Shown piece after piece: positions 17,812 to 55,518 of a stretch of DNA of 64,000 nucleotides (its first letter is position 1; the number at the start of each line of letters is the position of its first letter). The position numbers and the translations under genes are program-made. The DNA is from Deferribacterales bacterium (GTDB lineage: Bacteria; Chrysiogenota; Deferribacteres; Deferribacterales; Geovibrionaceae): contig JBFWJS010000002.1 of assembly GCA_050253075.1 (NCBI GenBank), forward strand, positions 320,001-384,000. Reading direction: 5' to 3'. A model generated the notes under the pieces. That model was not told the origin of the DNA. It was given only the letters and a program-made list of their open reading frames with translations, and searched no databases.

Positions 17812-17938
17812 TTTTCTGTGATTTGCTTATGCAGCTGAGGGTATAGATAAGATAAAAACGGGTGCCGCACACTACAGCACCCGCTACCTTACCAACATAG
17901 GGTCTAAACCCTCGGAGGAAATATTCGGAGGTTTTATG

Positions 17939-18841
17939 TTAGAATGATTTCACTATTGTAAACCACACAGCATCGCCTGCTGCGCAGTCTTTTGCACCGA
18001 ATTCTTTCTGGTATTTCAGCCTGAGCTGACCTTTCATCGCTGGGATGTTCATCTGCACTTCAGGACCTGCTCCGAAGAGTCTGTCTTTATCCGTGCTTGT
18101 GGCATCTGAGCCTTTATCCTCTGTGAGCTGCCAGTGAGCGAAACCTGATACGCCGAGCTCAAAAAGTCCGACCTGTCTGCCGATACCCCAGTCAAAGCTG
18201 AAGTCATCACCGGATCTCACGTCTGTTGATCTGTTTTTAAAATGCTTCTCGTATCTGGTGAGTACAGAAATGCTCCAGAGCTTCGCAGCATCGGGATAAA
18301 CTGTCGCACCGAGTGAATACATAAGTGTATAGCGGTCTGAGCCTATTGATGCGGCATCGTCTTTCTCATAATAGCCGGTAGGGAGAAATGCGGCGATGGC
18401 TGTCGATGCGTCCCATCTTTCTCCATGCCAGCTGATGAGAAGCGGCTCGAATGTGATATCGCCGATGTCTGTGCTGTCGTCATCGATGCCTGCAGCGTCT
18501 ATCTCCACATTAAGATTCACGACAGGAACGATAACATTCATCCCATAGTCACCGCCGAGTATCTTTTTGTTTGTAATGTATACGAAACGGTTAGCCATGA
18601 TAAAAGCGGAGAGGTCGAAACCGTTGTTTATCTCATCGCCGTCTTTGTCGTATGTTTTGTCTGCTTCATAGTATTTTGTATAGAGCACATAATAGAAGCC
18701 CGGAGGCGGAACAGTTGCACCCTTTATGCCTTCTGTACCTACGGGGTAATCCTGTGCTTTAACCTGTCCTGCTGTCACCATTACGAAAAGTGCAATGAGA
18801 GCCATTGAAATATTTTTTATTGTTTTTGCATTAATTCTCAT
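17939..18841 (-). CDS. SphA/Phenol_MetA_deg-family outer-membrane beta-barrel channel
   Basis: Signal peptide; YPVGTEGIKGATVPPPGFYY; GDITFEPLLISWH; LPTGYY; GAGPE; terminal Phe. Confidence 0.8.
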   Translation of the reverse strand: MRINAKTIKNISMALIALFVMVTAGQVKAQDYPVGTEGIKGATVPPPGFYYVLYTKYYEADKTYDKDGDEINNGFDLSAFIMANRFVYITNKKILGGDYGMNVIVPVVNLNVEIDAAGIDDDSTDIGDITFEPLLISWHGERWDASTAIAAFLPTGYYEKDDAASIGSDRYTLMYSLGATVYPDAAKLWSISVLTRYEKHFKNRSTDVRSGDDFSFDWGIGRQVGLFELGVSGFAHWQLTEDKGSDATSTDKDRLFGAGPEVQMNIPAMKGQLRLKYQKEFGAKDCAAGDAVWFTIVKSF

Positions 18842-18860
18842 ACTTGTCTCCTGTGATTCA

Positions 18861-19517
18861 TTATTTATAGAACGTAAGAGTCGTGAGCTTCAGCACGCCT
18901 TTGTAGAAATCTGTGCTGACGTGCTTCTCTGCCTCAGTGCAGAATGAGCCGAACCAGCTTGCGATGTGTTCCTCGATGAAGGAATCACGCTTTTCGCAAT
19001 AGAGTTCATACGCATCACTGCTGCCTGCAAGCATCTTTTCTGATGTATCACCTGCGAGATATGCCAGATAACCTATCAGTGTGCCGATATAGTCGTGTCT
19101 GTTATTCAGATCGAGAAAACCTGTGTAGCCTTCGCTGTTATACATTTCTGCCAGCTTGCTTATCACAGACAGATCCTTCGCCCCTTTATAAACCTGGGAA
19201 TAAGGCGGTCTCGGACCGTAATCGGGAGAAACTCCCCTGAAGGTCTTTGTCCAGTCACGCTTCAGCTCGAGCAGGATATCCTCATAGTCGCTCATCACGC
19301 CGTGAGGTATAGATGTCAGCATTTCCATGACACCTTTCAGGGTCGGGTCGGAGACATCTGCGGGCATCAGTTTTCCAACTGCCTTTATCAGCTCTTCGCA
19401 TGGATTGACATTATAAAATGCCGCCAGCAGAGAGAACGATGCTTCCTCCAGACGAACTTCCTGAAGCTCTATATCCTGATCTTCCATTACGGTTATATCG
19501 TTTTCTTTCATGTTCAT
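18861..19517 (-). CDS. TorD/DmsD-family molybdoenzyme chaperone
   Basis: PPYSQVY and DYIG (DHIG-like) motifs, FIEEHIASWF, FYKGV; operon position. Confidence 0.8.
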   Translation of the reverse strand: MNMKENDITVMEDQDIELQEVRLEEASFSLLAAFYNVNPCEELIKAVGKLMPADVSDPTLKGVMEMLTSIPHGVMSDYEDILLELKRDWTKTFRGVSPDYGPRPPYSQVYKGAKDLSVISKLAEMYNSEGYTGFLDLNNRHDYIGTLIGYLAYLAGDTSEKMLAGSSDAYELYCEKRDSFIEEHIASWFGSFCTEAEKHVSTDFYKGVLKLTTLTFYK

Positions 19518-19566
19518 ACCTCGCTTTATACGCCCCGCTAAGCAGGCGGGGCATAAAGTATTGTGA

Positions 19567-20172
19567 TCAATCTATGTAAAATACCCTTGGCACAGTGCCC
19601 TCTTCCGGTTTATAAGCCTCCGGCTTAAACTCACGGTAGACTTTAGATATTTCACTGTCGGGGTCGTCCAGATCGCCGAAGATCCTTGCTTTCGCAGGGC
19701 ATGTATCCACACATGCGGGCTCTATGCCTCTCTCTCTTCTGGAAGCGCAGAAAGTACATTTGTCCACTGTCTCAGTGACGTGCTCGCTGCTTCTCTTCTT
19801 CTCATATGCGTCCTGACCTTTATCGCCCCAGTATGTTGCTTTGTCTGCTTCGTTGAAGAAACGTGCGCCGTATGGGCATGCTTCCATACAGGCCTGACAT
19901 CCGATACACTCAGATGCTGTCACCTGAACTGTGCCGTCTGCGAGCTTTTTAGACGCTTTTGTCGGGCAGACCTCCACGCATGGAGCCTTGTCGCAGTGGT
20001 TACATATCAGAGGCATGTATGCCAGTCTGCTGTTAGGGAACTGGCCGTGCTCTAAAGTAAGCACTTTGGTGTAAAAAGTTCCCGGAGGTGTCGCATTCGC
20101 CTGTTTGCAGGCAACTGTACATCCGTTACATCCGAAACAGCGTCTTTTATCTATTATCATTGCCAGTTTCAT
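19567..20172 (-). CDS. 4Fe-4S dicluster electron-transfer subunit (DmsB/PsrB/ArrB-like)
   Basis: CFGCNGCTVAC, CNHCDKAPCVEVCP, CIGCQACMEACP, CTFC...PACVDTCP. Confidence 0.95.
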   Translation of the reverse strand: MKLAMIIDKRRCFGCNGCTVACKQANATPPGTFYTKVLTLEHGQFPNSRLAYMPLICNHCDKAPCVEVCPTKASKKLADGTVQVTASECIGCQACMEACPYGARFFNEADKATYWGDKGQDAYEKKRSSEHVTETVDKCTFCASRRERGIEPACVDTCPAKARIFGDLDDPDSEISKVYREFKPEAYKPEEGTVPRVFYID

Positions 20173-20181
20173 TTTTTACTC

Positions 20182-22899
20182 CTAACTTACCTTATAGATT
20201 TTTACTGGAACAGGGTTTGTGATACCCATAGCAACAGGGTCGCAGTCTGCGAGGTCTGTACATGTCAGTTTGTTATACATCAGATACTTAGTGCCTGATG
20301 CACCCGCAGATTTGACCAGTCGTCCCATACTTCCCGCTACACCGATAACGCCCGGCAGCAGCAGCTCTGTTACGAAGAGCTTTCCTGTTATCTTGCCGTT
20401 CTTTGACTCTACTGTCACAGTGTCGCCGGATTTCAGTCCTTTCTCATTTGCAGTGATAGTGCTCAGTGTTACTGTTCCGTATGTAGGGTCGAATGTCTCG
20501 CCCACTTCGTTCAGGTACGGAAGCTGATCCACGGCGCCCACACGCATAGGAGAGTATGGTGTTTTATATGTTATAGAAACGAGATCGTATTCATCTGTAC
20601 TCTTGATAGAGTTGATTTTATTAGGTCTCCAGTTGATAACAGCCTCGTAGTACGCAAGGTGCTTTTCAGCGTCGATACCGAGTGCTTTGACAACGTCATT
20701 GTGCTTTTTAAAGAATGGACGGAGGCCGTCACCGCTCTTTTTCAGTCTTTCGAAATAGAATGGGAACCTTGTCTCTCCTTTAGCATACAGACCTGTGTTG
20801 TAACAGTCGGCAGGAGCTTCTCTCTGTATGATGAGTCCTGTATCGTTCAGGCTGTCCATCGTGTGTTCTTTACCGAAGTATTTCTGAACACCTCTGTCCC
20901 AGACCTCTCTTACAGTGTAGAGTTTGTCAGGTTTGAAGTAGTCCTTCTTATCAAGGAATGCGATGGATATCTCACCGATCATAACGCCCATCTTGTTCAT
21001 CGCTTCGTTAAAGTCGCTGATAATACCCATCTTTTCGCAGAGCTGCATTATGATATCCTGTGACTGACGGGAATCAAATACAGGCGGGATAGGGTCTCTG
21101 TACATCAGCATCTTCAGCCCGAGTGTCTCTTTGGTGAAAACGTCGAAGCCTGACTCGTAGCAGTTCACGGATTCTTTCTCAAGGATCGCATGTGACGGAA
21201 GCAGGATGTCGGACATGTGCGCCATCTCGTCGTAGTGGTATGCCAGAGTGGCAGAGAACGGGATGCGGGAGATAGACTCTGCAACCATGTATGGCTCTGT
21301 CGTACTGGATATAGGGTTACCGCCGACGGTAAGGAGTGCATCGATCTCATACTCGACACCGTATTTCTTCGGATCCATAGCCACTTTATAAGCCAGTGCA
21401 GGCGTAGAGTGTCTGTGCGGGAAGAATTCGTAAAGGTCGATATGCTTCGGCGGCCATGTAGGCTCTTTGAAAAGTGCCTCCATCTTAGGCTCTACCACAC
21501 CGTCTTTATCAGGTGAGAGGAAAGGTCCTCTGGCGCAGGCGATGTTTCCGCCCGGCACATCAAGGGAACCGACGAGCATGTTGCATATCTTGCTCATAAG
21601 GTCGGCGCCGATACCGTCTCTCTGTCCCATTGCTCCACGCTGGCATATGATGCTGGATGTTCTGAGAGGGAATGTCTTGTCTTTGCCGTTCTTATCTTTC
21701 AGAGTGATAGTTTTGCCGATGCTGGCATTATCGACAAATCCTTTAGCTACTTCTCTGAGTCTAGCAGCAGGGATCTTTGTCAGCTCAGCCGCCCACTCAG
21801 GTGTTTTATCTTTCAGGCTTTCTTTAACAAGTGTAAAGCCTGTCACAAGTTTCTCGCCGTTCTGCTTGAGGTCTTTCACCTCGAGAGCAGGAGTTTTAAG
21901 TGTTTTATCGTCAAAGGATTTGACCTTTTTATCAGCAAGGTCATATATCTGAGGCTTGCCGTCTTTGCCTCTGTAGTAATCCCCTTTTGTATCGATGAGG
22001 TAAGGAGCGTTTGTGGACCAGCGCATGGTCTCTTCGTCATATTTACCTATCTCAAAGATTATCGTATGTGCGATGGTCATAAGGAATGGAAGCTCTGTTC
22101 CGGGCTTGATAGGAAGCCATTCGCCTTTTGATGCTTCTGCCGTGCATCTCGGGTCTACTACCACGTATTTAAGGTCTGTGTCGGCAAGAGCATCGCCGAG
22201 GCCTCTTGCTCCGCCGTTCGCAGCTCCGATGGACATACCTGTGTGGCGTCCGACAGCTATAACGTATTTAGCGTATTTAAGGTCGGATACCGTAACAGGG
22301 AAGATACCCTGTACAAGGTCTGCCGCATAGTGCAGCGCACAAAGTGTTCCGTTACTCTTCAGATAGTTAGGAGTGCCGTAAGCAGCAGCAAAGTAGAAAA
22401 GATATGTACAGAAATAGTTCATATCTCCGAAGCCCACCTGAAAGATGAATCTCTTAGGATCTCTGTCCCTTACTTTTTTCAGTGTCTTGGCTGTTGTAGT
22501 CAGAGCCTCTTCCCATGATATCTCTACCCACATCGGGTCTTCGTTCAGCCCCTTCTTAGGGTTTGTACGCTTCATAGGAGCTTTCACTCTGTAAGGGTTG
22601 TAAAGGTTCTGTATAAGAGAGTTACCCCTTGCACACATTGTACCTTTATTGTTTGGAGCTTTTGGATTTCCTTTCAGCTCGACAACAACGCCGTTTTCCA
22701 CACGGTACATGTTCGGGCAGTCGCCCCTCATGCACATTCTGCAGTGACTGAAGTGCCAGCTGTCCTTTGGGATCTGCTTTGAGCTTTTAGCAATACCGTT
22801 TACAGGCAGTGCGGCGTTTAATGCTGAAGCAGCACTTAAAACCCCCGCTGCTTTCAAAACTGACCGTCTACTAACCTTTAGTGTTGATAAACTCGCCAT
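20182..22899 (-). CDS. Tat-exported DMSO-reductase-superfamily molybdopterin oxidoreductase, substrate unknown
   Basis: SRRSVLK Tat motif; CX2CX4CX27C Fe-S motif; PMKRTNPKKGLNEDP..VEISWEEAL; VVDPRC; SDILLPS. Confidence 0.92.
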   Translation of the reverse strand: MASLSTLKVSRRSVLKAAGVLSAASALNAALPVNGIAKSSKQIPKDSWHFSHCRMCMRGDCPNMYRVENGVVVELKGNPKAPNNKGTMCARGNSLIQNLYNPYRVKAPMKRTNPKKGLNEDPMWVEISWEEALTTTAKTLKKVRDRDPKRFIFQVGFGDMNYFCTYLFYFAAAYGTPNYLKSNGTLCALHYAADLVQGIFPVTVSDLKYAKYVIAVGRHTGMSIGAANGGARGLGDALADTDLKYVVVDPRCTAEASKGEWLPIKPGTELPFLMTIAHTIIFEIGKYDEETMRWSTNAPYLIDTKGDYYRGKDGKPQIYDLADKKVKSFDDKTLKTPALEVKDLKQNGEKLVTGFTLVKESLKDKTPEWAAELTKIPAARLREVAKGFVDNASIGKTITLKDKNGKDKTFPLRTSSIICQRGAMGQRDGIGADLMSKICNMLVGSLDVPGGNIACARGPFLSPDKDGVVEPKMEALFKEPTWPPKHIDLYEFFPHRHSTPALAYKVAMDPKKYGVEYEIDALLTVGGNPISSTTEPYMVAESISRIPFSATLAYHYDEMAHMSDILLPSHAILEKESVNCYESGFDVFTKETLGLKMLMYRDPIPPVFDSRQSQDIIMQLCEKMGIISDFNEAMNKMGVMIGEISIAFLDKKDYFKPDKLYTVREVWDRGVQKYFGKEHTMDSLNDTGLIIQREAPADCYNTGLYAKGETRFPFYFERLKKSGDGLRPFFKKHNDVVKALGIDAEKHLAYYEAVINWRPNKINSIKSTDEYDLVSITYKTPYSPMRVGAVDQLPYLNEVGETFDPTYGTVTLSTITANEKGLKSGDTVTVESKNGKITGKLFVTELLLPGVIGVAGSMGRLVKSAGASGTKYLMYNKLTCTDLADCDPVAMGITNPVPVKIYKVS

Positions 22900-22987
22900 G
22901 CTATACCTCCATTATTGATTGGCCGAATAAATCTAAAAAACCCGGAATCGGCCTCTGATAAAAGGATATGGTTTTAATTGGATACTT

Positions 22988-23066
22988 TTAAGGTCCAAGC
23001 CCCCCTAAGAAAGAGGTGCCAAAAGGCTTTTTTAGGGTCCAGATCCCGTATAGTTTACAGGGCCAG
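22988..23066. promoter_or_regulatory. Putative MocR/TauR-type operator repeats
   Basis: Minus-strand TTGGACCTTAA (22988-22998) and CTGGACCCTAA (23032-23042), each with a weaker copy 24 bp away. Confidence 0.45.
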
Positions 23067-23132
23067 CGACTCCGGCAGATGAATTAACAAATTTTTGTGT
23101 TATTTTTAAATATACATACAAAAGGTGAGCAT

Positions 23133-24551
23133 ATGTTATACGATTGGAACCCTGATAAGGACTCTGAGATACCAATTTATGTCCAGCTCGCTAACCACAT
23201 TAGAGGATTAATTACCTCAGGTGTTATCAAAAGCGGGGCAAAGCTCCCGAGCAGACGCACACTGACGGCAAAGCTGGATGTAAGCAGGAATTCGGTTATT
23301 GCTGCTCTGGAGCTGCTGATAGAGGAAGGACTTATCATATCTTTTCCCAAATGCGGCTTCTTTGTAACGGATAACTGGGACATTTCAATAGCAAACTGGC
23401 AGGCTTATATAAAACGTGCCAGACACAGACCGGGGAATTCTGAGATAAGACACTGGTCGGATGCGGGCGGGCTTACCGAATTTGCCCTCAGTCCAGATTT
23501 CGACTGCGGTCCATATCTGCAGGAATCCTTCATCAGCGCCATGAACAAAATGAGCAAGCTCGACATGAAGTGCAAGTTCAGCAAGTTCGGCTTTCTCGGT
23601 CTGCGTGAAGCTATTGTTAAACATGTACGCACTTTCGGCATAAAGGCCGATGTAGACAACATATTGATCTGCCCTTCCAACATACTCGTATTATATCCGC
23701 TGTATGAATCACTTATGACCAGCGGGTCAAACTTCTTCTATGAGCAGAGCAACCTGATCATGGCGATATCGAACATCCACTCCATAGGTATGAACATGAT
23801 ACCCATACCACTCGACCAGCACGGACTTTCTGTCACAGAGCTGAAAAAGAATATCAGCAGGTACAAACATCCTGTGCTGCACCTTGACCTCACTGATCAG
23901 GCTCCCACCGGCATAGTGATGTCTCGTAAGCGTAAGAGAGACCTCATGGACATCATAAACGAGCACAGACTGCCCGTGGTGGAGATAGACCACCTGCGTG
24001 ATGCGTGGCACGATAAACCCTTCCCCTATCCTCTGAAATCAATGGATGAGCAGGGGAATATAATCTATATGGGCTCGATGATACGAAGCTGTCCCTGCGA
24101 CCTGCAGATGACATGGCTCATCGCAGATAAATATATTGTCGATCATCTGGCTGATGTTCTGGTGCAGAACGGCATAAAGGCAAACTTCCTTATGCAGATA
24201 GCACAGGCGGAGCTTTTCGATTCAGGTGCTTACTATGAGCTGATGGAAGGCGTCAGGGAATTCATAAAGAAGCGCAGGGAGAAAGCTCTGGGCTATCTGA
24301 AGACCCATCTTTCAGACATAGCATTATGGAAAGAGAAGAACTGCGGTTTTCACTTCTGGCTGGAGTTTCCTAATGTAAATATACGAAAGGTCTTTGAAAA
24401 CTCATACTTCCACGACTTCCATCCGGGATATTTCTTCGACCTTAAAGATAACAGCCACATCCTGCTCTGCCCTGCATCACTCAGGGACGCAGACATCGAA
24501 AAATCCATTATAGAGATATCAGAAACCGTGCGTGCAAGCATGGTAAAATAA
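23133..24551 (+). CDS. MocR/GabR-family regulator (GntR wHTH + aminotransferase-like domain)
   Basis: PIYVQLANHIR...GAKLPSRRTLTAKLDVSRNSV; QAPTGIVMS; GFHFWL. Confidence 0.9.
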   Translation: MLYDWNPDKDSEIPIYVQLANHIRGLITSGVIKSGAKLPSRRTLTAKLDVSRNSVIAALELLIEEGLIISFPKCGFFVTDNWDISIANWQAYIKRARHRPGNSEIRHWSDAGGLTEFALSPDFDCGPYLQESFISAMNKMSKLDMKCKFSKFGFLGLREAIVKHVRTFGIKADVDNILICPSNILVLYPLYESLMTSGSNFFYEQSNLIMAISNIHSIGMNMIPIPLDQHGLSVTELKKNISRYKHPVLHLDLTDQAPTGIVMSRKRKRDLMDIINEHRLPVVEIDHLRDAWHDKPFPYPLKSMDEQGNIIYMGSMIRSCPCDLQMTWLIADKYIVDHLADVLVQNGIKANFLMQIAQAELFDSGAYYELMEGVREFIKKRREKALGYLKTHLSDIALWKEKNCGFHFWLEFPNVNIRKVFENSYFHDFHPGYFFDLKDNSHILLCPASLRDADIEKSIIEISETVRASMVK

Positions 24552-25073: not shown

Positions 25074-26945
25074 TCAGAATGTTATTTTGAAGACTGCTCC
25101 GCTGTCGCTGTTTTCAGCCGTCAGCTTTCCGCAGAGTCGTTTTTCGATGATGCTTTTCGCAAGGGCGAGCCCTATACCTAGCCCCTTTTCTTCCCTTTTC
25201 GAATAATGCATGTTGAAGATATATTTCATATCATCTGCGTTTATACCGCCTGCATTGTCTGCAATGCAGAGGCACAGACCTTTTGATTCTTTACATGATA
25301 TCTCTATCACAGGGTTTGCCGTCTTCCGCTCCAGCATTATGGACACTGCGTTTTCAATGATTATCAGCAGAGCCTGACTCAGCTGTTTCTCGTCTGTGGT
25401 CACCGTCTTATCCAGATCTACCCTTTCGACTATGACGCCTGCGGATTTTATCGATGAATTCATAATTTTCATGGTATTTTCCACAACATCTGCCAGATTT
25501 ATCTCACGGATATCTGAATTCTTTGAATAAAAGCTGTAGAAATTCCCCACAAGCTCGTTCATATTCTGGATATGGTTTTCCATATTAGACAGCATTACGG
25601 ATTCTTTACTCTTTTCATCGCCCTTTTTGAAATACTCCACTTTCAGGTTCAGCACCTCAGAGCCCAGATATATCAAAGGCTGCTTAAACTGGTGCAGTAT
25701 CCCTGCCAGCAGGTGACTGGTGGAATTGAATTTGTTCATCTCCTCCACGAGAAGGGCATTCTCCAGCCTCTCTTTTTCCAGCAGTTTTATCTTCATGCTG
25801 AGTATCACCGCAAAGAGAAATGCGTCCACTGTCTTGCCGAAAGGCACGGCATATATGATCCATGTTCCGAAATTAACTTTACCAAGAAAATATGCGATAT
25901 AACACAGGATAAACACCATAAATGTACCTGTACCGACCAGAAAAAGTGTCGAACCCTGTAGATTTTTCTGTTTTATCACTATCGAGCTGAATATCACAAC
26001 CAGCAGACCGAACTGTACCATGACGGCCGTTGCCCTATTGTGGGTTATCAGACTGTCTGCATAGTAAAAGTACGCCACCGACAGGGCAAGAGCTCCGAAG
26101 ACTGCTATGGTGACAAGGTTGAACTTATACAGCCAGCGGATATTCTTCCTAAGATCGAAGAGCACAATGGTGAACATAGACATAAAGATGATGCCCAGCG
26201 ACGGCATCAGCTTATACGACAGGTCGAGGATAACCGTCGACACATAAGGGCTGAGATATGTATGCACATGCCCCGATGTGGTCAGCGCATTATAAATGTT
26301 TGTAATGCTGTGAATGATATACAGCACAAACGCCATATCCCTCAGAGATGTAAAGATCATAAGGTTATACACTATGAGCGCGAGGGTGATACCTATGAAC
26401 ATCCCCCATATGGTGACGTCTTTTATGACGAAAATATTGAATTTATGCTGGTCGAATACCCTCAGCTTTGCTTTTATTGGTGATGTGGAATGATACCTCG
26501 CAAACACTGCGATGCTCTCCTGCGGGGCAAGTGTCACGTCAATATTCGGGTAGCGCTTCATAATGCTCTTAAGGTTTATGGGGCGCTGGTCGCCGAACCT
26601 CTCAGTCTTTATCACCTGCCAGCCTTTTACAACGTAAAAATCGACTTCGTCCATAGCGGCAAAATCATTCAAAAGGTGCAGGGTAACATTTTCTTTCGTT
26701 TTATTCATCAGTGGGATGATCGTCCAGACGGTTTTGTCTGAATATGGGAAGAAGTCCCTTTCGGCAGGCTTGAATTCGGAGCGTCTCCCCAGCATGTCGT
26801 ATATGTTCAGACTGCTGCCTTCCTCGACATATACGCTCAGCTCACGGCTGTCGGCTATCCTCTTCACAGAGGTGTCAAAGATGTCGAAAGCATGGGCGGA
26901 AGCACCGCACAGCATCAGAATAAAAACGATAAAATACCTGATCAT
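25074..26945 (-). CDS. 7TM-DISM sensor histidine kinase
   Basis: Signal peptide, extracellular DISM-like domain, 7 TM helices (YNLMIFTSLRD), H-box ILHQFKQPL, DNAGGI, GLGIGL. Confidence 0.88.
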   Translation of the reverse strand: MIRYFIVFILMLCGASAHAFDIFDTSVKRIADSRELSVYVEEGSSLNIYDMLGRRSEFKPAERDFFPYSDKTVWTIIPLMNKTKENVTLHLLNDFAAMDEVDFYVVKGWQVIKTERFGDQRPINLKSIMKRYPNIDVTLAPQESIAVFARYHSTSPIKAKLRVFDQHKFNIFVIKDVTIWGMFIGITLALIVYNLMIFTSLRDMAFVLYIIHSITNIYNALTTSGHVHTYLSPYVSTVILDLSYKLMPSLGIIFMSMFTIVLFDLRKNIRWLYKFNLVTIAVFGALALSVAYFYYADSLITHNRATAVMVQFGLLVVIFSSIVIKQKNLQGSTLFLVGTGTFMVFILCYIAYFLGKVNFGTWIIYAVPFGKTVDAFLFAVILSMKIKLLEKERLENALLVEEMNKFNSTSHLLAGILHQFKQPLIYLGSEVLNLKVEYFKKGDEKSKESVMLSNMENHIQNMNELVGNFYSFYSKNSDIREINLADVVENTMKIMNSSIKSAGVIVERVDLDKTVTTDEKQLSQALLIIIENAVSIMLERKTANPVIEISCKESKGLCLCIADNAGGINADDMKYIFNMHYSKREEKGLGIGLALAKSIIEKRLCGKLTAENSDSGAVFKITF

Positions 26946-26946
26946 A

Positions 26947-27639
26947 TTACTCTTTACCCGGCACAAACATATAGCCCATGTCTTTCACATTTACTATATG
27001 GTCGCCCTGAATACGTTTTTTAAGCCTGTATACCAGATTCTTCAGAGAGCTGTCAGAGCACTCTATGTCGAAGAGAGTGTCTTCGAGGAACTCCTTTTTC
27101 AACAGCCTGTTCTTATTGTTTATCAGCATGTCGAGAAGCTCTTTCTCACGCTTCGGCAAAACCTCTGCAGGCTTGTCATCATATATGAGCTCACCTGACA
27201 GCTTATTATATTTCAATGAATTATTAATGCTATACAGCAGCTGACCATGCTTATCAAGGTAGTCCACGCACTTAGTAAGGGCATTGCGGAGCTGGTCAAA
27301 CTGCAGAGGCTTTATGATATATTCCACCAGCATAAGTGGGATAGCCTCTTTTATATGGTTTATATCCTGAAATGACGTGACGATGAATATCGGCGTGGAA
27401 GAGTCTTTCTCGCGTATCTTTTTAGCGACCTGAAGCCCGCTGTATTCGGGCATTTCTATATCCAGCAGGAGAATATCGGGCTTTCTGTTTTCATACATCT
27501 CCAGAGCCTGCCTGCCGTCTTTCACGGCTATGACATTCTCCACGAAAAGCCCTACGGCGTTCACGACGCTCTCACGCACGGCATCGTCGTCTTCCGCCAC
27601 CATTATCGTCATATTTTTCAGATATTCGCTTTGTTTCAT
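26947..27639 (-). CDS. OmpR/PhoB-type response regulator
   Basis: AEDD, LLDIEMP, YIIKP; winged helix LVYRLKKR...NVKDMGY. Confidence 0.92.
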   Translation of the reverse strand: MKQSEYLKNMTIMVAEDDDAVRESVVNAVGLFVENVIAVKDGRQALEMYENRKPDILLLDIEMPEYSGLQVAKKIREKDSSTPIFIVTSFQDINHIKEAIPLMLVEYIIKPLQFDQLRNALTKCVDYLDKHGQLLYSINNSLKYNKLSGELIYDDKPAEVLPKREKELLDMLINNKNRLLKKEFLEDTLFDIECSDSSLKNLVYRLKKRIQGDHIVNVKDMGYMFVPGKE

Positions 27640-27677
27640 TCACCGGTCCATTTTTGTTTTCTCTACAATACTATTGA

Positions 27678-27735
27678 AAAGTCGCATGAAAGTCGAATTG
27701 ATATTTTTCTATTTATACGACTTTGGTTCGACTTT
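27678..27735. promoter_or_regulatory. Two opposed tandem pairs of heptamer AAAGTCG (likely OmpR-type operators)
   Basis: AAAGTCG at 27678 and 27689; CGACTTT at 27718 and 27729; 11-bp period. Confidence 0.7.
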
Positions 27736-27786
27736 CGTTTGATAGTCTCATCCTGTCCAATACTATTTTCTTATATTGAGGTAGAG

Positions 27787-30700
27787 ATGAGATCAAAATT
27801 AAAATCTTTATTTATTTTCTCGGCTTTGGTTATCCTCCTCACCGGATGCGGGGTTCTCGACGGTGACGGCAATCATTCCGGGACGGAATCATCTGCAGGG
27901 GCAGACCTTGACTTTTACGGCGTGGCAGCCATAGGAGCACCTGCAGCGGGCTACACAGTTTATCTTCAGAGTGCCGACGGACAGCTTTTACAGGCTGTGG
28001 CGGACGGCAGCGGAGGATACTCCATAAATGCTAGAAACATACAGGCGCCGTACCTGCTCTGGTTTGAGCTGACAGGCGGAGAAAAGATATATGCAGTCAC
28101 ATTTCAGGACGGCGTGGTAAACCTGAATGCGATAACGAGCGCACTCACAAAAGCGGCGTACGCTCTATCAGGCGGAGAGGATGAAGACATCGACCCCGCC
28201 TCATTCAGCGAAGACAGGTTCGGCATAGCTCAGGACGCTCTGGCGGATTTCATGCAGCCGGTGCTTGCGCTTTACGGTGTAGACCACGAAGGCTTTAACT
28301 CTGTGCAGATGCCTGACTTCATAGCCGACGGATTCGGCGTGGACGGCATACTGGACGACTTCGAGATAAGCTACGACGACGCTTCCGAAGAGATAAAAAT
28401 AAGGATCAAGGGAACCGGTACAGATATAGGATCCCTCGATATAGACGGTGTTAGAAATAATGAAGAGAATGTCGATAACATAGATGAGACATCTCTCGCA
28501 TCGGTAACGGCCTCTATGGTGGCTAAAACAGCATCCAACATCACCTTCACTGCGATCGCGGGGGAGAATACTTCTGCTAATAATGTCGTGACAGCCCTCA
28601 ACCTTTTCACGACTTATAAGAACGGCACGACAGTAACATGGACAAGCAGTGACGAGGCCGTATCCACCGATGGAACCATCACAAGACAAAGCACCGACAC
28701 CACGGTAACGCTCACGGCGACTGTCGGCAAAGACGACTACACATCGACCAAGAGCATAATCATACTGGTGAAAGCGGCTGAAAGCACAGGCGGCGGTGAA
28801 GAGCCCCCCGCAGAATTCGACGACAGATACGACTTCCTAGGGAACAACCGCACGGCAGAAAGCGTGATACTCAACCTGAACATGCCGACATCGCTCTCAG
28901 ACGGCACAACGATAAGCTGGGCTTCCAGCGAACCTGAATACATAACCACAAACGGCGAGCTTCTCAAACGCCCTGCCGTATCCGAAGGTGATAAGATCGT
29001 CACTCTGACAGCCACAGAGACGAAAAACTCCATAACAGAGACCAACATATACACCGTTACGATACCGGCGATAATCCCACATAGGATGTCTTACGGATCA
29101 TTGATCAAAGAAGACGGAAGCCTCTGGCAGTCGGGTGAAATTGCTAATTATAGCGTCGGCATCGGCTACGGCGTCCACAATACATTCACACAGGAGATTA
29201 CCGGTGCATACGACTGGGTCTCCGTTTCTTCAAACACCTCATACACCCTCGCTATCAAATCAGACGGAACGCTCTGGGGATGGGGATTCAATCATGATAA
29301 ACAACTGACCTCAGACGACGTTCTCTTAGTCGAAACCCCGATACAAATAGGCACTGACGACGATTGGGTCTCAGTATCCTTGGGTATGTATCTAAATGTC
29401 GCCGTAGCTCTGAAAGCTGACGGGACAGCATGGGTATGCGGCAGTAATGACTACGACATAGTACCATCCGCAGACGGCGAGTCGGTACAGATCCCAATAC
29501 AGGAGCTCAGTCTGGCGAGCGACTGGGCAGATGTACAGGTGGGCTACCTATACATCACAGGCCTGAAGACTGACGGAACAATATGGAGCTGGGGGAGAAA
29601 TTACTTCGGCGGATTCGGAACAGCCAGATCATATGATCTGACCGCCACCCCCGTACAGGAATCGACAAAGGCCACAGACTGGTCTGCGATAGATGCCTAC
29701 TCCGGTACTGCTGCGGTGAAAAAGGACGGCACACTCTGGCTATGGGGAGGCGTTTCGATATCTTTGTTCGCCTCAGCCGAAGAAAGGGTAATCAAAAAGG
29801 CGGGCCCATCATTTTACTCCATAGAAGCTCCTATGCAGGAGCCGAGCCTGTCCACCGACTGGGTCAGACCATTCTTCGGATCCAGCATAGGCGGTGTGAA
29901 ATCTGACGGAACCATATGGAGCTTCGGCAGCGGAAAATCCTGTATCCTCGGCAACGGCCTTTGCGAAGACAGCCTTGAAATAGTGCAGGAATCCACCGCA
30001 AGCACAGACTGGATAGACGCCGTAACAGCGGGTGCAAACATCTATGCCCTCAAGTCCGACGGTTCCTTTTGGGGATGGGGATCTAACAACGGCGGAGAGC
30101 TCGGCACAGGTCAGGGCTATTTAACTACATATGAACCGGAAGTTTATGATAGAAAATCATTCGTTAAAGTAGATAGAAGAGGCGGAGGAGAATACTTCTG
30201 CGGAATTGAGGCAGACGGAGACCTCTGGTGTAAAAGTTATTACACCCCTTTCTTCTATCAGGTAGAAGGCTCATGGAGTGATGTCGTCACAGACGGATAC
30301 GGAGTATGGGGCATCAAAACCGACGGCACACTCTGGTTCTGGGGTTCAGACTATTACGGCTATTTCATGAACGGCGGGGCATATATGGAATATGACACCC
30401 CTACGCAGATAGGCACCGCCACATGGAAACAAATCGCCCTTGAAAAACACGACAGCGCATCCAGATATATGATGGGCATACAGACCGACGGCACACTCTG
30501 GGCAATGGGTAGAGACTCATACTATGACGGCAGTGCATGGGTCACAACCACCTCACCGACAAAGCTGAGCGACGATTCATGGAGCAAGATAGTACTGGGA
30601 AACTACCGCATGGCTATCAAAACAGACGGCACTCTGTGGGCATGGAGTTCAGGCGATTCCACAGGGCTGGGAGACACCATACCGCCGTCTTACCCTGTGC

Positions 30701-31152
30701 AGATAGGTACAGACACATGGAAAGATGTATCCATATCAAGAGGACAGTACGGCATCGGCGTCAAGACCGACGGCAAGCTCTACGGATGGGGATATTCATG
30801 GCAGTCATTCATGTTTGACGACAGCTACGACTACGATGTGCCGACAGCCATGTCAAACGCTGATACCGACTGGGAACGTGTCTGGGTAGGCTACGGCTAT
30901 TTCGCAGCTCAGAAATCAGACGGCAGCCTCTATACGGCAGGGAACAACGATGTCTATCCTGTGTATATGCAGGGGCTGGGAATCACCGAGACCAGCATCA
31001 ATACCCTCAGAAAGGTGGCAGGAACATACAACGATATCTTCTTCCTCTATGATGCCGTATATGCCAAGGGCACAGACGGAAAAGACTATACATGGGGCAG
31101 ACAGGGTTATTTAGAATTCGCCGAACCCAACCCTATAAAGATAATGGACTGA
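27787..31152 (+). CDS. Large lipoprotein with two Ig-like repeats and 14 RCC1/BLIP-II-like repeats
   Basis: ATG 27787 with GAGG RBS; lipobox LLTGC; two W.SS...VTLTAT repeats; 14 copies of xKxDG(T/S)LWxWG-like motif. Confidence 0.85.
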   Translation: MRSKLKSLFIFSALVILLTGCGVLDGDGNHSGTESSAGADLDFYGVAAIGAPAAGYTVYLQSADGQLLQAVADGSGGYSINARNIQAPYLLWFELTGGEKIYAVTFQDGVVNLNAITSALTKAAYALSGGEDEDIDPASFSEDRFGIAQDALADFMQPVLALYGVDHEGFNSVQMPDFIADGFGVDGILDDFEISYDDASEEIKIRIKGTGTDIGSLDIDGVRNNEENVDNIDETSLASVTASMVAKTASNITFTAIAGENTSANNVVTALNLFTTYKNGTTVTWTSSDEAVSTDGTITRQSTDTTVTLTATVGKDDYTSTKSIIILVKAAESTGGGEEPPAEFDDRYDFLGNNRTAESVILNLNMPTSLSDGTTISWASSEPEYITTNGELLKRPAVSEGDKIVTLTATETKNSITETNIYTVTIPAIIPHRMSYGSLIKEDGSLWQSGEIANYSVGIGYGVHNTFTQEITGAYDWVSVSSNTSYTLAIKSDGTLWGWGFNHDKQLTSDDVLLVETPIQIGTDDDWVSVSLGMYLNVAVALKADGTAWVCGSNDYDIVPSADGESVQIPIQELSLASDWADVQVGYLYITGLKTDGTIWSWGRNYFGGFGTARSYDLTATPVQESTKATDWSAIDAYSGTAAVKKDGTLWLWGGVSISLFASAEERVIKKAGPSFYSIEAPMQEPSLSTDWVRPFFGSSIGGVKSDGTIWSFGSGKSCILGNGLCEDSLEIVQESTASTDWIDAVTAGANIYALKSDGSFWGWGSNNGGELGTGQGYLTTYEPEVYDRKSFVKVDRRGGGEYFCGIEADGDLWCKSYYTPFFYQVEGSWSDVVTDGYGVWGIKTDGTLWFWGSDYYGYFMNGGAYMEYDTPTQIGTATWKQIALEKHDSASRYMMGIQTDGTLWAMGRDSYYDGSAWVTTTSPTKLSDDSWSKIVLGNYRMAIKTDGTLWAWSSGDSTGLGDTIPPSYPVQIGTDTWKDVSISRGQYGIGVKTDGKLYGWGYSWQSFMFDDSYDYDVPTAMSNADTDWERVWVGYGYFAAQKSDGSLYTAGNNDVYPVYMQGLGITETSINTLRKVAGTYNDIFFLYDAVYAKGTDGKDYTWGRQGYLEFAEPNPIKIMD

Positions 31153-31465: not shown

Positions 31466-32245
31466 ATGGACGGAAAATTATCCAGAAGAGATGTCTTGAC
31501 CAGAGCGGCCGTGCTGGGGGCGGGAGCTGTGTTCGGCGGTCTTACCACTTCGGCGGCAAAGGCTTCCGAGGCTGAATCTCTCATGAAGCAGTGGCCATGG
31601 CCATATGAAAAACTCGATCCTGCCGTTACGGCAGAGATAGCATACAACGAATGGTACAACCTCGGCTGCGGAGGGACGGTCATCCACTCCGTATTCGAAC
31701 AGCTCGCAGAGATCGTGGGCGAACCATACAAATCTTTTCCCGTGGAGTCATTCGCAATATTCGAAGGCGGTATGGCAGGCTGGGGAACCATATGCGGGTC
31801 TGTGAACGGTGCGTCCGTCGTGGCTGCGCTCATAGTCGGCCCTCCTACATGGGAGGAGATATCAGCCATAATAGCTTCAAACACTATGGACTGGTACTCC
31901 CACGCAAATATGCCACTTTACGTTCCGCAGGAACCGAGGGCAAACAAAGACTCCATCGTACAGACAGTGAGCGACTCTCCCCTCTGCCACGTATCCGTGG
32001 GCAAGTGGATGAAAGCGTCGGGCTTCTCACTCGGCAGTGACGAACGTCAGGACAGATGCGCACGTGTTTCAGCATCCGTGGCGTATAAGCTGGTGGAAAA
32101 GCTGAACGAATGGAAAGATCAGGGTGAAGACTTCTTCGAAGAAAAGGCATGGTCAGGTCCGAAAAAATCAGGAATCACAGCCCAATACAACTGCGCATCC
32201 TGCCACGGCGAAAATGTGCCGAAACCACCTCTTGCCAAAAAATAA
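31466..32245 (+). CDS. Split-Soret cytochrome c-like Tat protein (C_GCAxxG_C_C family)
   Basis: SRRDVL Tat motif; WPWPYEKLDP; GCGG; GGMAGWGTICGSVNG; SPLCHVSV; RCAR; C-terminal CASCH. Confidence 0.85.
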   Translation: MDGKLSRRDVLTRAAVLGAGAVFGGLTTSAAKASEAESLMKQWPWPYEKLDPAVTAEIAYNEWYNLGCGGTVIHSVFEQLAEIVGEPYKSFPVESFAIFEGGMAGWGTICGSVNGASVVAALIVGPPTWEEISAIIASNTMDWYSHANMPLYVPQEPRANKDSIVQTVSDSPLCHVSVGKWMKASGFSLGSDERQDRCARVSASVAYKLVEKLNEWKDQGEDFFEEKAWSGPKKSGITAQYNCASCHGENVPKPPLAKK

Positions 32246-32263
32246 TCTATAAGGAGTGGTTAG

Positions 32264-32953
32264 ATGAAAAGAAGAGATTTCGTAAAAGGAATGACCGGCG
32301 TGACCGTTCTGTCGCTCTCGCCTATGCCCATAATCTTTAAGAACAGGGACAAGTGGAACGGCTTCAACACCCTGACAGCAGACAGACCGGAGAAAGAGCA
32401 TCACTATGCTATGGTTATCGTTCAGAACAACTGCATAGGGTGCAGAGCATGCGAAAAGGCGTGCAAGGGCGCATGGGACATATCCGAAGAGAGCGGACAT
32501 TTCCGCACCAGAGTGCTCTATGGCGCTCAGGCGCAGAGTAACAATACAAAGATGACATGGCTGCCTGTGCTCTGTAACCAGTGCGACAACGCTCCATGTG
32601 TAAAAGTATGCCCCACAAAGGCAAGCTATAAAAGATCAGAAGACGGTGTGATACTGGTGGATGCGGCAAAGTGCATCGGGTGCAAGACATGCATCGTAGC
32701 ATGCCCCTACGACGCCAGATATTATTCCGAAGAAAAGCATACGGTCGACAAGTGTACGTTCTGTCTTCCAAAAGTCCAGCAGGGGCAGCTGCCGGCATGT
32801 GTCGAACGCTGTCCTATGCAGGTCAGGTTTTTCGGCGACCTGCTCGACCCGCACTCTAAGGTGTCTAAGATACTCAAAGAGGCTGTCTCCTATCATGTGC
32901 TGAAACCTGAGGCAGGTACAAAATCTAATGTGTTCTATACACAGGAAATATAG
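32264..32953 (+). CDS. Tat-signal 4Fe-4S dicluster protein (NrfC/PsrB-like)
   Basis: KRRDFVK; CIGCRACEKAC, CNQCDNAPCVKVCP, CIGCKTCIVACP, CTFC...PACVERCP. Confidence 0.93.
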   Translation: MKRRDFVKGMTGVTVLSLSPMPIIFKNRDKWNGFNTLTADRPEKEHHYAMVIVQNNCIGCRACEKACKGAWDISEESGHFRTRVLYGAQAQSNNTKMTWLPVLCNQCDNAPCVKVCPTKASYKRSEDGVILVDAAKCIGCKTCIVACPYDARYYSEEKHTVDKCTFCLPKVQQGQLPACVERCPMQVRFFGDLLDPHSKVSKILKEAVSYHVLKPEAGTKSNVFYTQEI

Positions 32954-32960
32954 GGGGGCG

Positions 32961-34136
32961 ATGATGTCTGTAAACATAAAGAATAAACAAATCTCGGCTA
33001 TGCCTTTCATACTGCTCGGGCTGGTGCTCGTGGCTGTCGGCGGCATTTCGGCGATTACAGTTTTCATAAAAGGTCACGAGACTATGTACGGCGTTACACG
33101 TCAGATGCCGTGGGGGCTGCTCATCGCTACCTATGCGTATTTTGTAATAACCTCCACAGGGCTCGCATTCATAGGCGGGCTGGGGCACGCATTCGGATAT
33201 GAGAAATATGCCGTCATCAGCAGACGCATCGTCGTCCTCGCTACCGTTGTGCTCCTTGCCGGCTTCACACAGATACTCATGGAGATAGGCCAGCCGCTGA
33301 AGATGGTGTATATGATGATATCGCCAAACCCTACGGCGCCTATATTCTGGATGGGCATATTCTACAGCGTAGAGCTGGTGATACTCGCCTTTGAGCTTTA
33401 CCTCATATTCAAACCGAATCAAACGGAAAGAGACCATAAAATGGCGGCCGGTGCGGGATTCATGGCGCTTTTAGTCGGTGTTTTAGCCACCAGCAACCTC
33501 GGGTTCGTTTTCGGATCTATCTCAGCCAGAGCGTGGTTTCAGGGGATATATTTTTCGACATTTCTGGTGATATCAGGCATATCCGCAGGCGCAGGCCTCC
33601 TTATACTTGTGCACTATGTAATATATAAAGGCAGAGTGCCCGAAGACACCAAAGATGCACTTATCTCACTCGGTAAATTGATGGGCGGCGGCATCGCACT
33701 GATGCTTTTCCTGTATGTATGGAAAATGTTCTCATCCGTGTTCATAGGCTCAGGCGATGCCTACGCTTCCGCAATGGCGCTTCTCAACGGTGCATACAGC
33801 CTTAATTTCTGGGTGGGGGAGATACTCATGGCAGTTGTCATACCTCTCCTGCTGATAATGACAGCGAAAGGACGCATAGGCAGACTTGCCTTTGGCGGGT
33901 TCATATTCCTCATCGGGCTGTTTTTCACCAGATACGACTTTGTCGTGGTGGGTCAGCTTCCGCCGATGCGTGCGGGCTTTTTCGGCTCGGGCGCACTGAC
34001 AGATGTTGTGGGGCTGGATTTCTATTCGCCTTCCATGACGGAGTGGCTGATATACCTTTTAGGTTTCGGTGTATTTTTCCTCTTATATTTCTCTGCGGAA
34101 AAGTTTCTGAACCTCGAAACAATGGACAAACACTAG
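32961..34136 (+). CDS. NrfD/PsrC-family quinone-interacting membrane subunit
   Basis: PWGLLIATYAYF; EIGQP; SPNPTAPIFWM; RYDFVVVGQ; YSPSMTEW; many TM helices. Confidence 0.9.
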   Translation: MMSVNIKNKQISAMPFILLGLVLVAVGGISAITVFIKGHETMYGVTRQMPWGLLIATYAYFVITSTGLAFIGGLGHAFGYEKYAVISRRIVVLATVVLLAGFTQILMEIGQPLKMVYMMISPNPTAPIFWMGIFYSVELVILAFELYLIFKPNQTERDHKMAAGAGFMALLVGVLATSNLGFVFGSISARAWFQGIYFSTFLVISGISAGAGLLILVHYVIYKGRVPEDTKDALISLGKLMGGGIALMLFLYVWKMFSSVFIGSGDAYASAMALLNGAYSLNFWVGEILMAVVIPLLLIMTAKGRIGRLAFGGFIFLIGLFFTRYDFVVVGQLPPMRAGFFGSGALTDVVGLDFYSPSMTEWLIYLLGFGVFFLLYFSAEKFLNLETMDKH

Positions 34137-34199
34137 CGAATTAGGGACCGCTGGTATAATATGCGGGGCTTCTTTTGCCAGGGAGGCCCCGTTATTTAA

Positions 34200-34586
34200 T
34201 CAGAATTTATCCAGAATATCCTTCTGAGAATCGAGGAACCCTTCAAAGTTTTCACACAGCTCCCAGTAAAGTTTGATGACACGCATCCCCTCCTCCGTGA
34301 GCTCTGCTCCGCCTCCGCCTGTTCCGCCGGTGCTCTTTATCACCAGAGGCTTTTCAGACATGGAGTTTATGCTCTCCACCAGCTTCCACGCACGGCTGTA
34401 AGACATCTTTTCAGAAGATGCCGCCTTTGATATCGAGCCGTATTCGAGTATCTTTTCCAGAAAGATGATCTTGCCCAGACCGAGGAAGTTTTTGTCGTCA
34501 CGGTCTATCCATATACGCCCGCTGAGGGTCGTGTTTCCCGAGCGTTTTTTCAGTTCTATTCGTTTTGTCATATCATTTCTTCGCAT
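34200..34586 (-). CDS. ModE-family regulator, DNA-binding domain only (no molybdate-binding TOBE domains)
   Basis: LGLGKIIFLEKI...GSISKAA..MSYSRAW...GGTGGGGAELT; 128 aa. Confidence 0.88.
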   Translation of the reverse strand: MRRNDMTKRIELKKRSGNTTLSGRIWIDRDDKNFLGLGKIIFLEKILEYGSISKAASSEKMSYSRAWKLVESINSMSEKPLVIKSTGGTGGGGAELTEEGMRVIKLYWELCENFEGFLDSQKDILDKF

Positions 34587-34631
34587 TTATAGAGTTTATT
34601 GAACTTATCATTGTTTTTATACCAAGGCAAA

Positions 34632-35510: not shown

Positions 35511-35520
35511 AGCTCCCTCC

Positions 35521-35548
35521 GTTCTGTTTTACAGAACGCATTGTTCTG
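35521..35548. promoter_or_regulatory. Putative LysR operator
   Basis: GTTCTG-N5-CAGAAC-N5-GTTCTG containing T-N11-A, between divergent lysR and permease. Confidence 0.5.
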
Positions 35549-35654
35549 ATTATTCGATTTGACTACACATATAATTACTTATATTAAAATAGATTACAAG
35601 ATATACATTACATCGGCAAACAGCTAGATGTTTCGAAATACCGAATGAGGAACA

Positions 35655-42693: not shown

Positions 42694-42711
42694 TGTTTCC
42701 TCCGGTTGACC

Positions 42712-55105: not shown

Positions 55106-55119
55106 GTTACCTCCAAAAG

Positions 55120-55518
55120 TTATGATTTATACTGTTCGTCGGACACCTTCTCCATCCATGCGACAGAGGATCCGTCGATCGATTCCTGTATTGCGATGTG
55201 CGTCATGGCCGTGTCCGGGCCTGCGCCGTGCCAGTGTTTTTCCCCTGCGGGGAACCACACGACATCCCCTGCCCTGATCTCTTCTATATCTCCGCCTTCA
55301 CGCTGAACTCTCCCGCAGCCGAATGTCACTATCAGTGTCTGGCCTGCGGGGTGCGTATGCCACGCTGTTCTTGCGCCCGGTTCGAATGTTACATAAGCAC
55401 CGGATGTCCTTGACGGGTCTTCCGGTTTAAGAAAGAGCGGATCCAGCCTGACAGTCCCTGTGAACCAGTCTTCGGGTCCTTGCATAGATGCCTGCGCTCC
55501 ACTTCTTGTAATCTTCAT
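55120..55518 (-). CDS. Cupin-domain protein (cytoplasmic paralog)
   Basis: [43 protein letters not shown]. Confidence 0.93.

Follow-up and report, generated by a model that had tools for sequence, protein, structure and literature searches.

A predicted periplasmic molybdoenzyme module with an outer-membrane channel and a MocR-type regulator of degenerate pyridoxal-phosphate site in a Deferribacterales bacterium

The window analyzed here (64,000 nucleotides; positions 320,001 to 384,000 of contig JBFWJS010000002.1, assembly GCA_050253075.1, from a Deferribacterales bacterium) harbors a compact module in which a molybdenum (Mo) subunit with a twin-arginine translocation (Tat) motif, an iron-sulfur (Fe-S) subunit, a TorD-family chaperone and a SphA-type outer-membrane barrel are encoded divergently from a MocR-type regulator. 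The Mo enzyme belongs to an unnamed radiation next to, not inside, the PadB lineage. With a probability of about 0.45, the module encodes a soluble periplasmic two-subunit (AB) terminal reductase, served in trans by a quinol dehydrogenase, which would deoxygenate a low-polarity organic acceptor, probably aromatic, that enters through the barrel and acts as inducer through a regulator independent of pyridoxal 5'-phosphate (PLP). Reduction of an organic acceptor is favored because close homologs of the barrel lie in flavocytochrome operons and a relative of the module encodes a NapC-type cytochrome.

Gene organization of the module

The five-gene layout described in the first-pass annotation was borne out, with open reading frames (ORFs) where it had placed them and concurring Pfam matches, and the ORF list likewise agrees that the window operon contains no membrane-anchor gene. 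The features are as follows.

17857..17885, minus strand: terminator-like intrinsic hairpin immediately 3' of the barrel gene (13-pair stem and T-run; z -7.0)
17939..18841, minus strand: COG4313/SphA-type outer-membrane barrel, 300 amino acids (aa) (PF13557 Phenol_MetA_deg, 174.9 bits, cut-off 22)
18861..19517, minus strand: TorD/DmsD-family chaperone, 218 aa (Pfam Nitrate_red_del)
19530..19554, minus strand: GC-rich hairpin without a U-tail between the Fe-S and TorD genes (z -2.7; absent from the terminator list)
19567..20172, minus strand: Fe-S electron-transfer subunit, 201 aa, 16 Cys (Pfam Fer4_11)
20182..22899, minus strand: catalytic bis(molybdopterin guanine dinucleotide) (bis-MGD) Mo subunit, 905 aa (Pfam PF00384/PF04879/PF01568, Molybdopterin/Fe4S4/Molydop_binding)
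23036..23066, plus strand: direct repeat GGTCCAG-N17-GGGCCAG, half-sites at 24-bp spacing, likely operator of the regulator
23133..24551, plus strand: MocR-type GntR regulator, 472 aa from ATG 23133 within ORF 23097..24551 (Pfam GntR)
32264..34136, plus strand: Fe-S and NrfD gene pair without an adjoining catalytic subunit, candidate quinol-oxidizing partner in trans

The four minus-strand genes are separated by gaps of 9, 49 and 19 bp, and the predicted hairpin at 17857..17885 closes the unit. Judged solely by this spacing, the barrel gene would be co-transcribed with the Mo operon. The hairpin at 19530..19554 is not labeled a terminator and is a possible mRNA stability element. The terminator scan returned two weak 5-pair minus-strand sites within genes (8 sites in total versus 5.7 +/- 2.4 by chance), and the promoter scan stayed at chance level (9 found versus 10.7 expected). 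No Tat motif was seen in the 201 aa of the Fe-S subunit, whose 16 Cys residues suggest four [4Fe-4S] clusters.

Two neighboring groups of genes were rejected as parts of the module. The iron ABC genes 3' of the barrel lie beyond the terminator, and their position next to the module is not conserved. At 25074-27639, a 7TMR-DISM kinase/regulator pair resembles one upstream of a related locus (L081), but with 21% identity and rank 26 of 27 among the genome's matches.

Active-site motifs and fold of the Mo subunit

The Mo subunit is a DMSO reductase (bis-MGD) family protein by its domains over cut-off, its fold, its FS0 cluster motif and its probable Cys ligand. The RTNPKKG-type motif named in the first-pass annotation is present as RTNPKKGLNEDP at residues 111-122. 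The FS0 ligands C53, C56, C61 and C89 form the CX2CX4CX27C motif that the annotation had also reported, but its description as unusual did not hold: CX2CX4C occurs in 28 of the 34 aligned rows that have the N-terminus, and as the norm of the clade it does not distinguish this enzyme. The Cys ligand proposed in SNGTLC gained support. The motif ends at C187, which aligns with the ligand Cys of ArrA (6cz7, SHSSVCAEAH), and none of the 35 aligned homologs departs from C187 or H190; C187 is a probable Mo ligand.

The (R/K)GRY motif belongs to the ArrA active site. As previously claimed, it is missing here: a motif search found none in the 905 residues, and it is present in L161, L162 and 6cz7. The position of the ArrA RGRY, which together with neighboring His/Lys residues we take to have active-site roles, is occupied by GFGD followed by the Phe/Met/Tyr-rich stretch MNYFCTYLFYF, and the neighboring His/Lys are not retained in the alignment. 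The GFGD stretch fits a less cationic entrance and a neutral substrate rather than an oxyanion. As a separate observation, the ArrA-like proteins of two other genomes, G023 (L193:12246-14783) and G029 (L162), carry FS0 CX2CX3D instead of CX2CX3C.

The N-terminal motif SRRSVLK recurs in orthologs, and the Pfam Tat match reaches 19.5 bits, below its cut-off of 22.7; the enzyme is predicted to be exported to the periplasm via Tat. The AlphaFold2 model (mean predicted local distance difference test score, pLDDT, 87.7) has ArrA 6cz7 as its closest solved fold (TM 0.69, 22% identity) and also matches PcrA and PsrA, and a search of the ESM Atlas returned only generic molybdopterin clusters.

Phylogenetic position

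No NCBIfam model reaches its cut-off for the Mo subunit. The best match is PhsA (PRK15488), at 207 bits versus 694, a model on which the genome's own psr-like protein scores 501 bits; the ArrA model NF041714 gives 148 bits (cut-off 1600), compared with 1164 for the ArrA-like L161 of G023. Scoring of 8000 candidates gave 448 homologous clusters at E<=1e-40; their named sources include Deferribacterota, Halarcobacter, Eggerthella, Desulfitobacterium, Sporomusa and Chloroflexota, and the database labels on relatives include PadB, BisC and nitrate reductase. Two homologs, P0049 (40%, "MopB_phenylacetyl-CoA family") and P0015 (54%), carry database names of the type of the CDD MopB phenylacetyl-CoA-OR subfamily; automatic annotation thus already files relatives of the Mo subunit in this subfamily, a broad sequence class.

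PadB-like references were chosen by synteny (L151, L152, L153, L159 and L160), and the characterized T. aromatica sequence is not among them. By profile, L151 and L152 adjoin a PaaK-like ligase, a 2-oxoacid oxidoreductase and had genes, and L153 adjoins PaaX; L159 and L160 have the same neighbors by similarity (pad gene content as outlined in PMC4453571). Identity between these proteins and the query is 24-27%; they show no Tat motif, and their FS0 motif reads CX2CX4D. A plasmid tblastn search for a PadB reference gave one Sporomusa match, and none of the homologs retrieved with L039 was named PadB. A PadI family search matched 0 of 133 genomes and no control either, and is uninformative.

In a FastTree phylogeny of 81 of the ~150 gathered sequences, hand-picked for spread, the query falls in an unnamed radiation of 62 rows (SH-like support 97) beside the PadB clade (100), and outside the ArrA-like, Psr-like and Ttr-like rows. 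In a 28-row IQ-TREE phylogeny, the query's 14-row clade has support 100 and joins PadB and two other unnamed lineages in a clade with a Shimodaira-Hasegawa-like approximate likelihood ratio (SH-aLRT) of 93, their order being unresolved. The PadB-like rows group, on a long stem, in a separate clade (support 100) in which the query is not nested, and both trees separate the query from the psr-like protein of the genome. By the approximately unbiased (AU) test, grouping of the query clade with ArrA is rejected (p=0.0005) and a sister relationship with PadB is not (p=0.28); long branches make the deep order soft. The earlier view that the enzyme lies outside the characterized ArrA, PsrA and PadB clades therefore stands, by both trees and, for ArrA, by the AU test. 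L047 and L048, candidate ArxA proteins, branch outside the query's clade and adjoin an aioA-like gene with PhnD/kinase genes.

No description of the clade or module was found in the literature searched, which lay largely outside subscription journals and supplements, and the main text of a family-wide phylogeny (PMC7331816) contains no words beginning with "pad" or "anra". A very abundant non-Tat sister lineage (L039, P0121-P0240; 1285 clusters at E<=1e-60) has GTMCGGAYH at the ligand and uninformative names.

Conservation of the module in Deferribacterota

The Mo subunit has 13 matches in 9 of 68 Deferribacterota genomes, and the named loci with 58-77% matches are Deferribacterales. The first-pass annotation had proposed a search for the conserved five-gene neighborhood, and conservation holds for its core: the A-B-TorD order is kept in 13/13 copies and a divergent MocR gene in 11/13 (L027 has a sigma-54 activator and the contig of L031 ends). 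It does not hold for the SphA barrel, which follows TorD in only 5/13 (the window, L022, L023, L024 and L027). An anchor gene is found in none of the 13 operons. This absence was dropped as a distinguishing feature, since the arrAB-TorD operon of G023 and, within the window, the ttrBA-like pair at 39583-43437 have no anchor gene either. The 13 loci show no catabolic genes accompanying the module.

Sequence near the ligand varies with the channel. In a pocket-motif table covering 10 of 16 rows, FPV(T/A)VSD and R..G..ANG occur in the SphA-type copies and in L032, and FPGVKPD and SSDG in the four copies listed that carry an OprD-family porin. Four genomes (G027, G029, G035 and G036) encode two paralogs each, one per channel type, with differing pocket motifs among the loci listed, and such pairing suggests substrate specialization.

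Two further observations concern relatives of the module. Genes for a SufS-like desulfurase, a split YeeE/YedE pair and a rhodanese recur at L025, L026, L028, L030, L032, L081 and L135, possibly forming a sulfur relay for cofactor or product. A genome labeled Xanthobacteraceae (G068; L004, L033-L037) contains a copy of 67-72% identity under a GAF/sigma-54 activator, with at least three distant paralogs, through either transfer or mis-binning.

The outer-membrane barrel

The barrel has a signal-peptide-like N-terminus, a C-terminal Phe and a length of 300 aa, and shows the characters of the COG4313/SphA/MetA-pathway family, which include a mature size of 270-320 aa (PMC4493636); its match to 4rl8 is weak (E 0.0012). 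COG4313 channels have been reported for trichlorophenol and sphingosine, polar solutes pass them poorly, and their genes often lie within degradation clusters, according to the same source. By analogy, the barrel would transport a hydrophobic solute.

Among the 68 genomes, 30 barrel matches were found, 15 of them at >=48% identity, the window's own included; the 15 weaker matches (26-35%) stand outside the systematic neighborhood count. All 14 other close homologs adjoin exported oxidoreductases: four lie in this module, one closes a different operon for a Tat Mo enzyme that includes NapGH-like genes (L185), and nine lie in flavocytochrome operons (L183, L184, L186-L192) that encode an FAD_binding_2 flavoprotein and a c3-type cytochrome. 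A divergent XylR/V4R activator is present in six of these nine operons. The flavoproteins were profile-scanned in five loci and BLAST-matched in four, and the activators scanned in three and BLAST-matched in three. Because every close homolog adjoins such an enzyme, the barrel is, in this bacterial family, an accessory of exported oxidoreductases whose substrates are probably organic compounds. The earlier proposal of respiration or oxidation of an organic substrate through a dedicated channel is upheld to this extent, but not in its assumption of one dedicated SphA channel. The operons of L183-L192 that combine an XylR/V4R activator with a Tat flavoprotein, cytochrome c3 and SphA barrel are themselves candidate reductases for aromatic or unsaturated acceptors.

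Regulator and operator

Translation of the regulator more likely starts at ATG 23133 than at 23097, as the former follows a AAAGGTGAG ribosome site and matches ortholog starts. The protein comprises a GntR winged helix-turn-helix (wHTH) and an aminotransferase-like domain, matches the PdxR model at 195 bits over residues 26-470 and aligns with GabR over both domains (E 1.6e-21). The PLP site of MocR proteins consists of a Schiff-base Lys, an Asp at the pyridine N, a phosphate Arg and a stacking Tyr. The GabR PLP-binding residues K312, D279, R319, Y205 and Y281, as given in PMC11669113, correspond to R318, I285, Q325, L208 and H287 in the query. None of 32 close homologs (39-100%) retains the Asp or the stacking Tyr, and 9 retain the Lys and 10 the Arg; of 24 more distant sequences from the same search, 23 retain the Asp, 23 the Tyr, 22 the Lys and 24 the Arg. 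Since the Lys, Asp, Arg and Tyr of the PLP site are replaced, the regulator is unlikely to be a PLP aldimine sensor.

MocR proteins are described as using direct repeats (PMC5320631). Of 12 intergenic regions, 10 contain two half-sites spaced exactly 24 bp apart (L026 and L038 being missed, with a loose pattern), and any other spacing between 10 and 40 bp is found in at most 1. Shuffled sequences matched in <=1% per region, a figure flattered by the derivation of the pattern from these same sequences; the fixed spacing is the stronger point. The genome has only two occurrences of the strict pattern, the one at 23036-23066 and another that precedes the MocR paralog on contig C1. The repeat links regulator to operon and is its likely operator.

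The second site belongs to a locus (L038:9146-11636; G000 C1 ~33145-35635) whose regulator is 62% identical and has the same degenerate PLP site and 24-bp repeat. It diverges from a lone TorD-like gene (34% identity to the window TorD), with no Mo or Fe-S gene, and the locus is apparently the remnant of a second module.

Direction of the reaction and proposed mechanism

On the direction of catalysis, the evidence leans toward reduction over oxidation. NapC proteins feed periplasmic reductases. A 50% identical relative (L081) has the order A-B-TorD-NapC/NirT cytochrome-triple rhodanese-OprD porin, and quinol-fed reduction is favored because of the NapC-type cytochrome in this operon; L086 and L087 also carry a NapC/NirT cytochrome, and more distant relatives carry NrfD- or DmsC-type anchors. 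PadB is the nearest lineage with a known reaction and acts on an aromatic organic substrate, which supports the proposed class of acceptor, and the absence of catabolic genes in the 13 loci also counts for respiration of this kind.

In the proposed mechanism, TorD would mature the Mo subunit, and Tat would export the Mo and Fe-S subunits together, as is known for the family. The substrate would enter the periplasm via the COG4313 barrel. Electrons derived from menaquinol would be delivered by a quinol dehydrogenase encoded elsewhere, for which the Fe-S and NrfD pair at 32264-34136 is a candidate, and would reach a Mo(IV) ligated by Cys187 by way of four B-subunit clusters and FS0. The Mo center would then abstract an oxygen, which an S- or N-oxide substrate would supply or, in PadB chemistry run backward, a hydroxyl adjacent to a carbonyl; His190 may donate the proton. 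From the 24-bp direct repeat, the divergent regulator would activate the operon, probably sensing the substrate without PLP.

Several observations weigh against this reading. An OprD-family porin follows TorD in 6/13 copies (L021, L025, L026, L028, L029 and L030) and neither barrel nor porin in 2/13 (L031 and L032), among the latter L032, which has almost the same pocket motifs as the query; given these copies, the chemistry does not depend on the SphA channel. The match between channel and pocket amounts to two or three lineages, not independent events, and the pocket residues were taken from sequence alignments rather than model coordinates. All five flavoproteins scanned beside the barrel fall below NCBIfam cut-offs and are uncharacterized. 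At 5/13 copies (L025, L026, L028, L030 and L032), the neighbors include SufS-like and YeeE genes and, in most cases, a rhodanese; sulfur-gene neighbors also occur at L081 and L086, relatives outside the 13 copies, and such genes may indicate sulfur chemistry or cofactor sulfuration. Finally, PadB itself is an oxidizing enzyme.

The sulfur genes bear on the leading, though unlikely, alternative, namely a reductase of S-S or S-oxyanion bonds (organic polysulfides or disulfides, thiosulfonates, S-sulfonates or S8) that delivers sulfane sulfur to rhodanese or YeeE proteins. The Cys-ligated relatives Psr, Phs and Ttr act on sulfur compounds, as treated in PMC7331816, PhsA is the best NCBIfam match, and the neighbors just listed are joined by the triple rhodanese of L081, whose homolog in the window genome sits behind the psr-like operon, and by the flanks of a distant relative (L135), a YeeE pair and a class V enzyme. 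However, no such genes lie near the window copy or the other four SphA-type copies, ORFs of at least 100 aa in the window genome include no match to the YeeE or single-domain rhodanese queries, the sulfur genes could instead supply the sulfido ligand of the cofactor, and the barrel subfamily otherwise accompanies XylR-controlled flavocytochromes. Distinctly unlikely is catalysis in the PadB direction, in which a hydrophobic organic donor would be hydroxylated without O2, or dehydrogenated, in the periplasm and its electrons would pass to nitrate respiration. It would agree with the AU result for PadB, the C..H arrangement at the Mo ligand common to PadB and the query, a Nap-like enzyme in the genome and the frequent placement of COG4313 genes in degradation clusters (PMC4493636), but the 13 loci contain no downstream catabolic genes, the NapC of L081 favors reduction, and PadB acts on a coenzyme A (CoA) thioester with PadB-like proteins lacking Tat, whereas the query enzyme is predicted to be periplasmic.

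It is quite improbable that the enzyme reduces a metalloid compound, inorganic (an oxyanion of As, Sb or Se) or organic (an organoarsenical); the barrel would then be a passenger or would admit an aryl-metalloid. ArrA is the closest solved structure, and ArrA-like genes lie ~18 kb (G023) and ~30 kb (G029) from OprD-type copies; yet the query has no (R/K)GRY, the grouping with ArrA is rejected, the genome's Mo enzymes include no ArrA-like ORF, and 3/5 module-bearing genomes tested gave no ArrA match. The first-pass annotation had drawn from the MocR gene an amino-compound substrate, a proposal now weakened, and use of taurine or another such compound sensed as a PLP aldimine is highly improbable. 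Its support is the minus-strand half-site CTGGACC, which is similar to the CTGGACYTAA consensus of TauR; bisC/dmsC/hybA belong to some TauR regulons (both in PMC5320631). Against it stand the replaced PLP residues, the poor fit of polar taurine to a COG4313 channel and the absence of any Xsc over cut-off in the genome (best 353 versus 676 bits). No taurine genes were recognized in the module loci, tpa and tauABC not having been searched genome-wide.

Within the organic-acceptor reading, a more specific and rather doubtful version is a new respiratory system in which a periplasmic PadB-sister enzyme cleaves a C-O bond (dehydroxylation next to a carbonyl) of an aromatic or hydrophobic compound taken up via the COG4313 channel, and a PLP-free MocR-derived regulator binds the substrate directly. 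If true, this would provide the first reaction for a lineage with hundreds of representatives among anaerobes of sediments, digesters and the gut and would define a PLP-independent MocR subfamily.

Significance and other features of the window

Uncharacterized molybdoenzyme clades are common, and the module architecture, as predicted, is of a familiar kind: a periplasmic respiratory reductase plus a hydrophobic-solute channel and a degenerate-PLP regulator. This Mo enzyme comes from a wide Cys-ligated lineage for which no described reaction was found in the literature searched, and its channel, regulator and defined operator make the compact module a practical entry point to the inducer and hence the substrate. 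The COG4313 barrels of these anaerobes suggest a role in periplasmic organic respiration, beyond catabolic uptake alone, and the regulator suggests a MocR subfamily working without PLP.

Elsewhere in the window, the ttrBA-like pair (39583-43437, minus strand) lacks ttrC and has a PhnD-like protein and a sensor kinase nearby. At 31466-34136 (plus strand), 5 kb from this pair, a Tat C_GCAxxG_C_C protein is encoded with the Fe-S and NrfD genes and no catalytic subunit, and a ModE-like HTH gene (34200-34586) adjoins this unit. A 726-aa molybdopterin oxidoreductase without a Tat motif (51292-53472, plus strand) lies among flavodoxin/cupin-type genes. The segment at ~55000-58500 is low in GC (32-40% versus ~48%) and possibly a recent insertion. 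A 1173-aa lipoprotein-like ORF (27631-31152, plus strand) with Ig-like and RCC1/BLIP-II-like repeats, recognized by eye, is divergent from a response regulator and 7TMR-DISM kinase.

Comparison with known systems

PadBCD (Thauera/Aromatoleum) represents a neighboring lineage (joint clade 97 SH-like / 93 SH-aLRT) and shares with the query RTNPKKG..EDP, Cys then His at the Mo ligand, the four-residue spacing after the second FS0 Cys and a DmsB-type B subunit. The query differs from PadB by its low identity (24-27%), its Tat motif SRRSVLK and a third FS0 ligand that is Cys rather than Asp, and its module has no membrane part and no PaaK-like ligase, 2-oxoacid oxidoreductase, had or benzoyl-CoA pathway genes nearby. 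ArrAB likewise combines a Tat A subunit, an Fe-S B subunit and TorD with a Cys ligand, provides the closest structure (6cz7, TM 0.69) and can also be anchorless, as the arr-like operon of G023 is; the query departs from it in identity (22-24%), in having no (R/K)GRY, in its ArrA model score (148 bits versus 1164 for the G023 protein) and by AU rejection. PsrABC/PhsABC share the Cys ligand, the best NCBIfam match and rhodanese partners near some relatives, whereas the query is ~130 aa longer, has no NrfD in its operon, scores 207/694 bits and is separate in both trees.

Flavocytochrome c reductases of the methacrylate Mrd/Mcc type have the same soluble two-component periplasmic layout, and the barrel subfamily accompanies such operons here, although they use FAD where the query has Mo-bisMGD. 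The two-protein layout of flavoprotein and cytochrome is that of methacrylate reductase (PMC4427408); the barrel-linked flavocytochromes, mostly 564-582 aa compared with 507 aa for an Mrd homolog listed in that source, are candidate, not established, Mrd orthologs. Gut Mo dehydroxylases (catechol; corticoid 21-dehydroxylase) resemble the query, by analogy only, in being DMSO-reductase-family members and in organic-acceptor respiration. A gut Eggerthella Mo enzyme is described as removing an OH alpha to a ketone, so reverse-PadB chemistry exists (PMC11574389). Lastly, the query regulator shares with the MocR/GabR regulators GabR, TauR and PdxR a wHTH joined to an aminotransferase-like domain, a divergent gene and a direct-repeat operator, but differs from them in that the PLP Lys, Asp, Arg and stacking Tyr are replaced.

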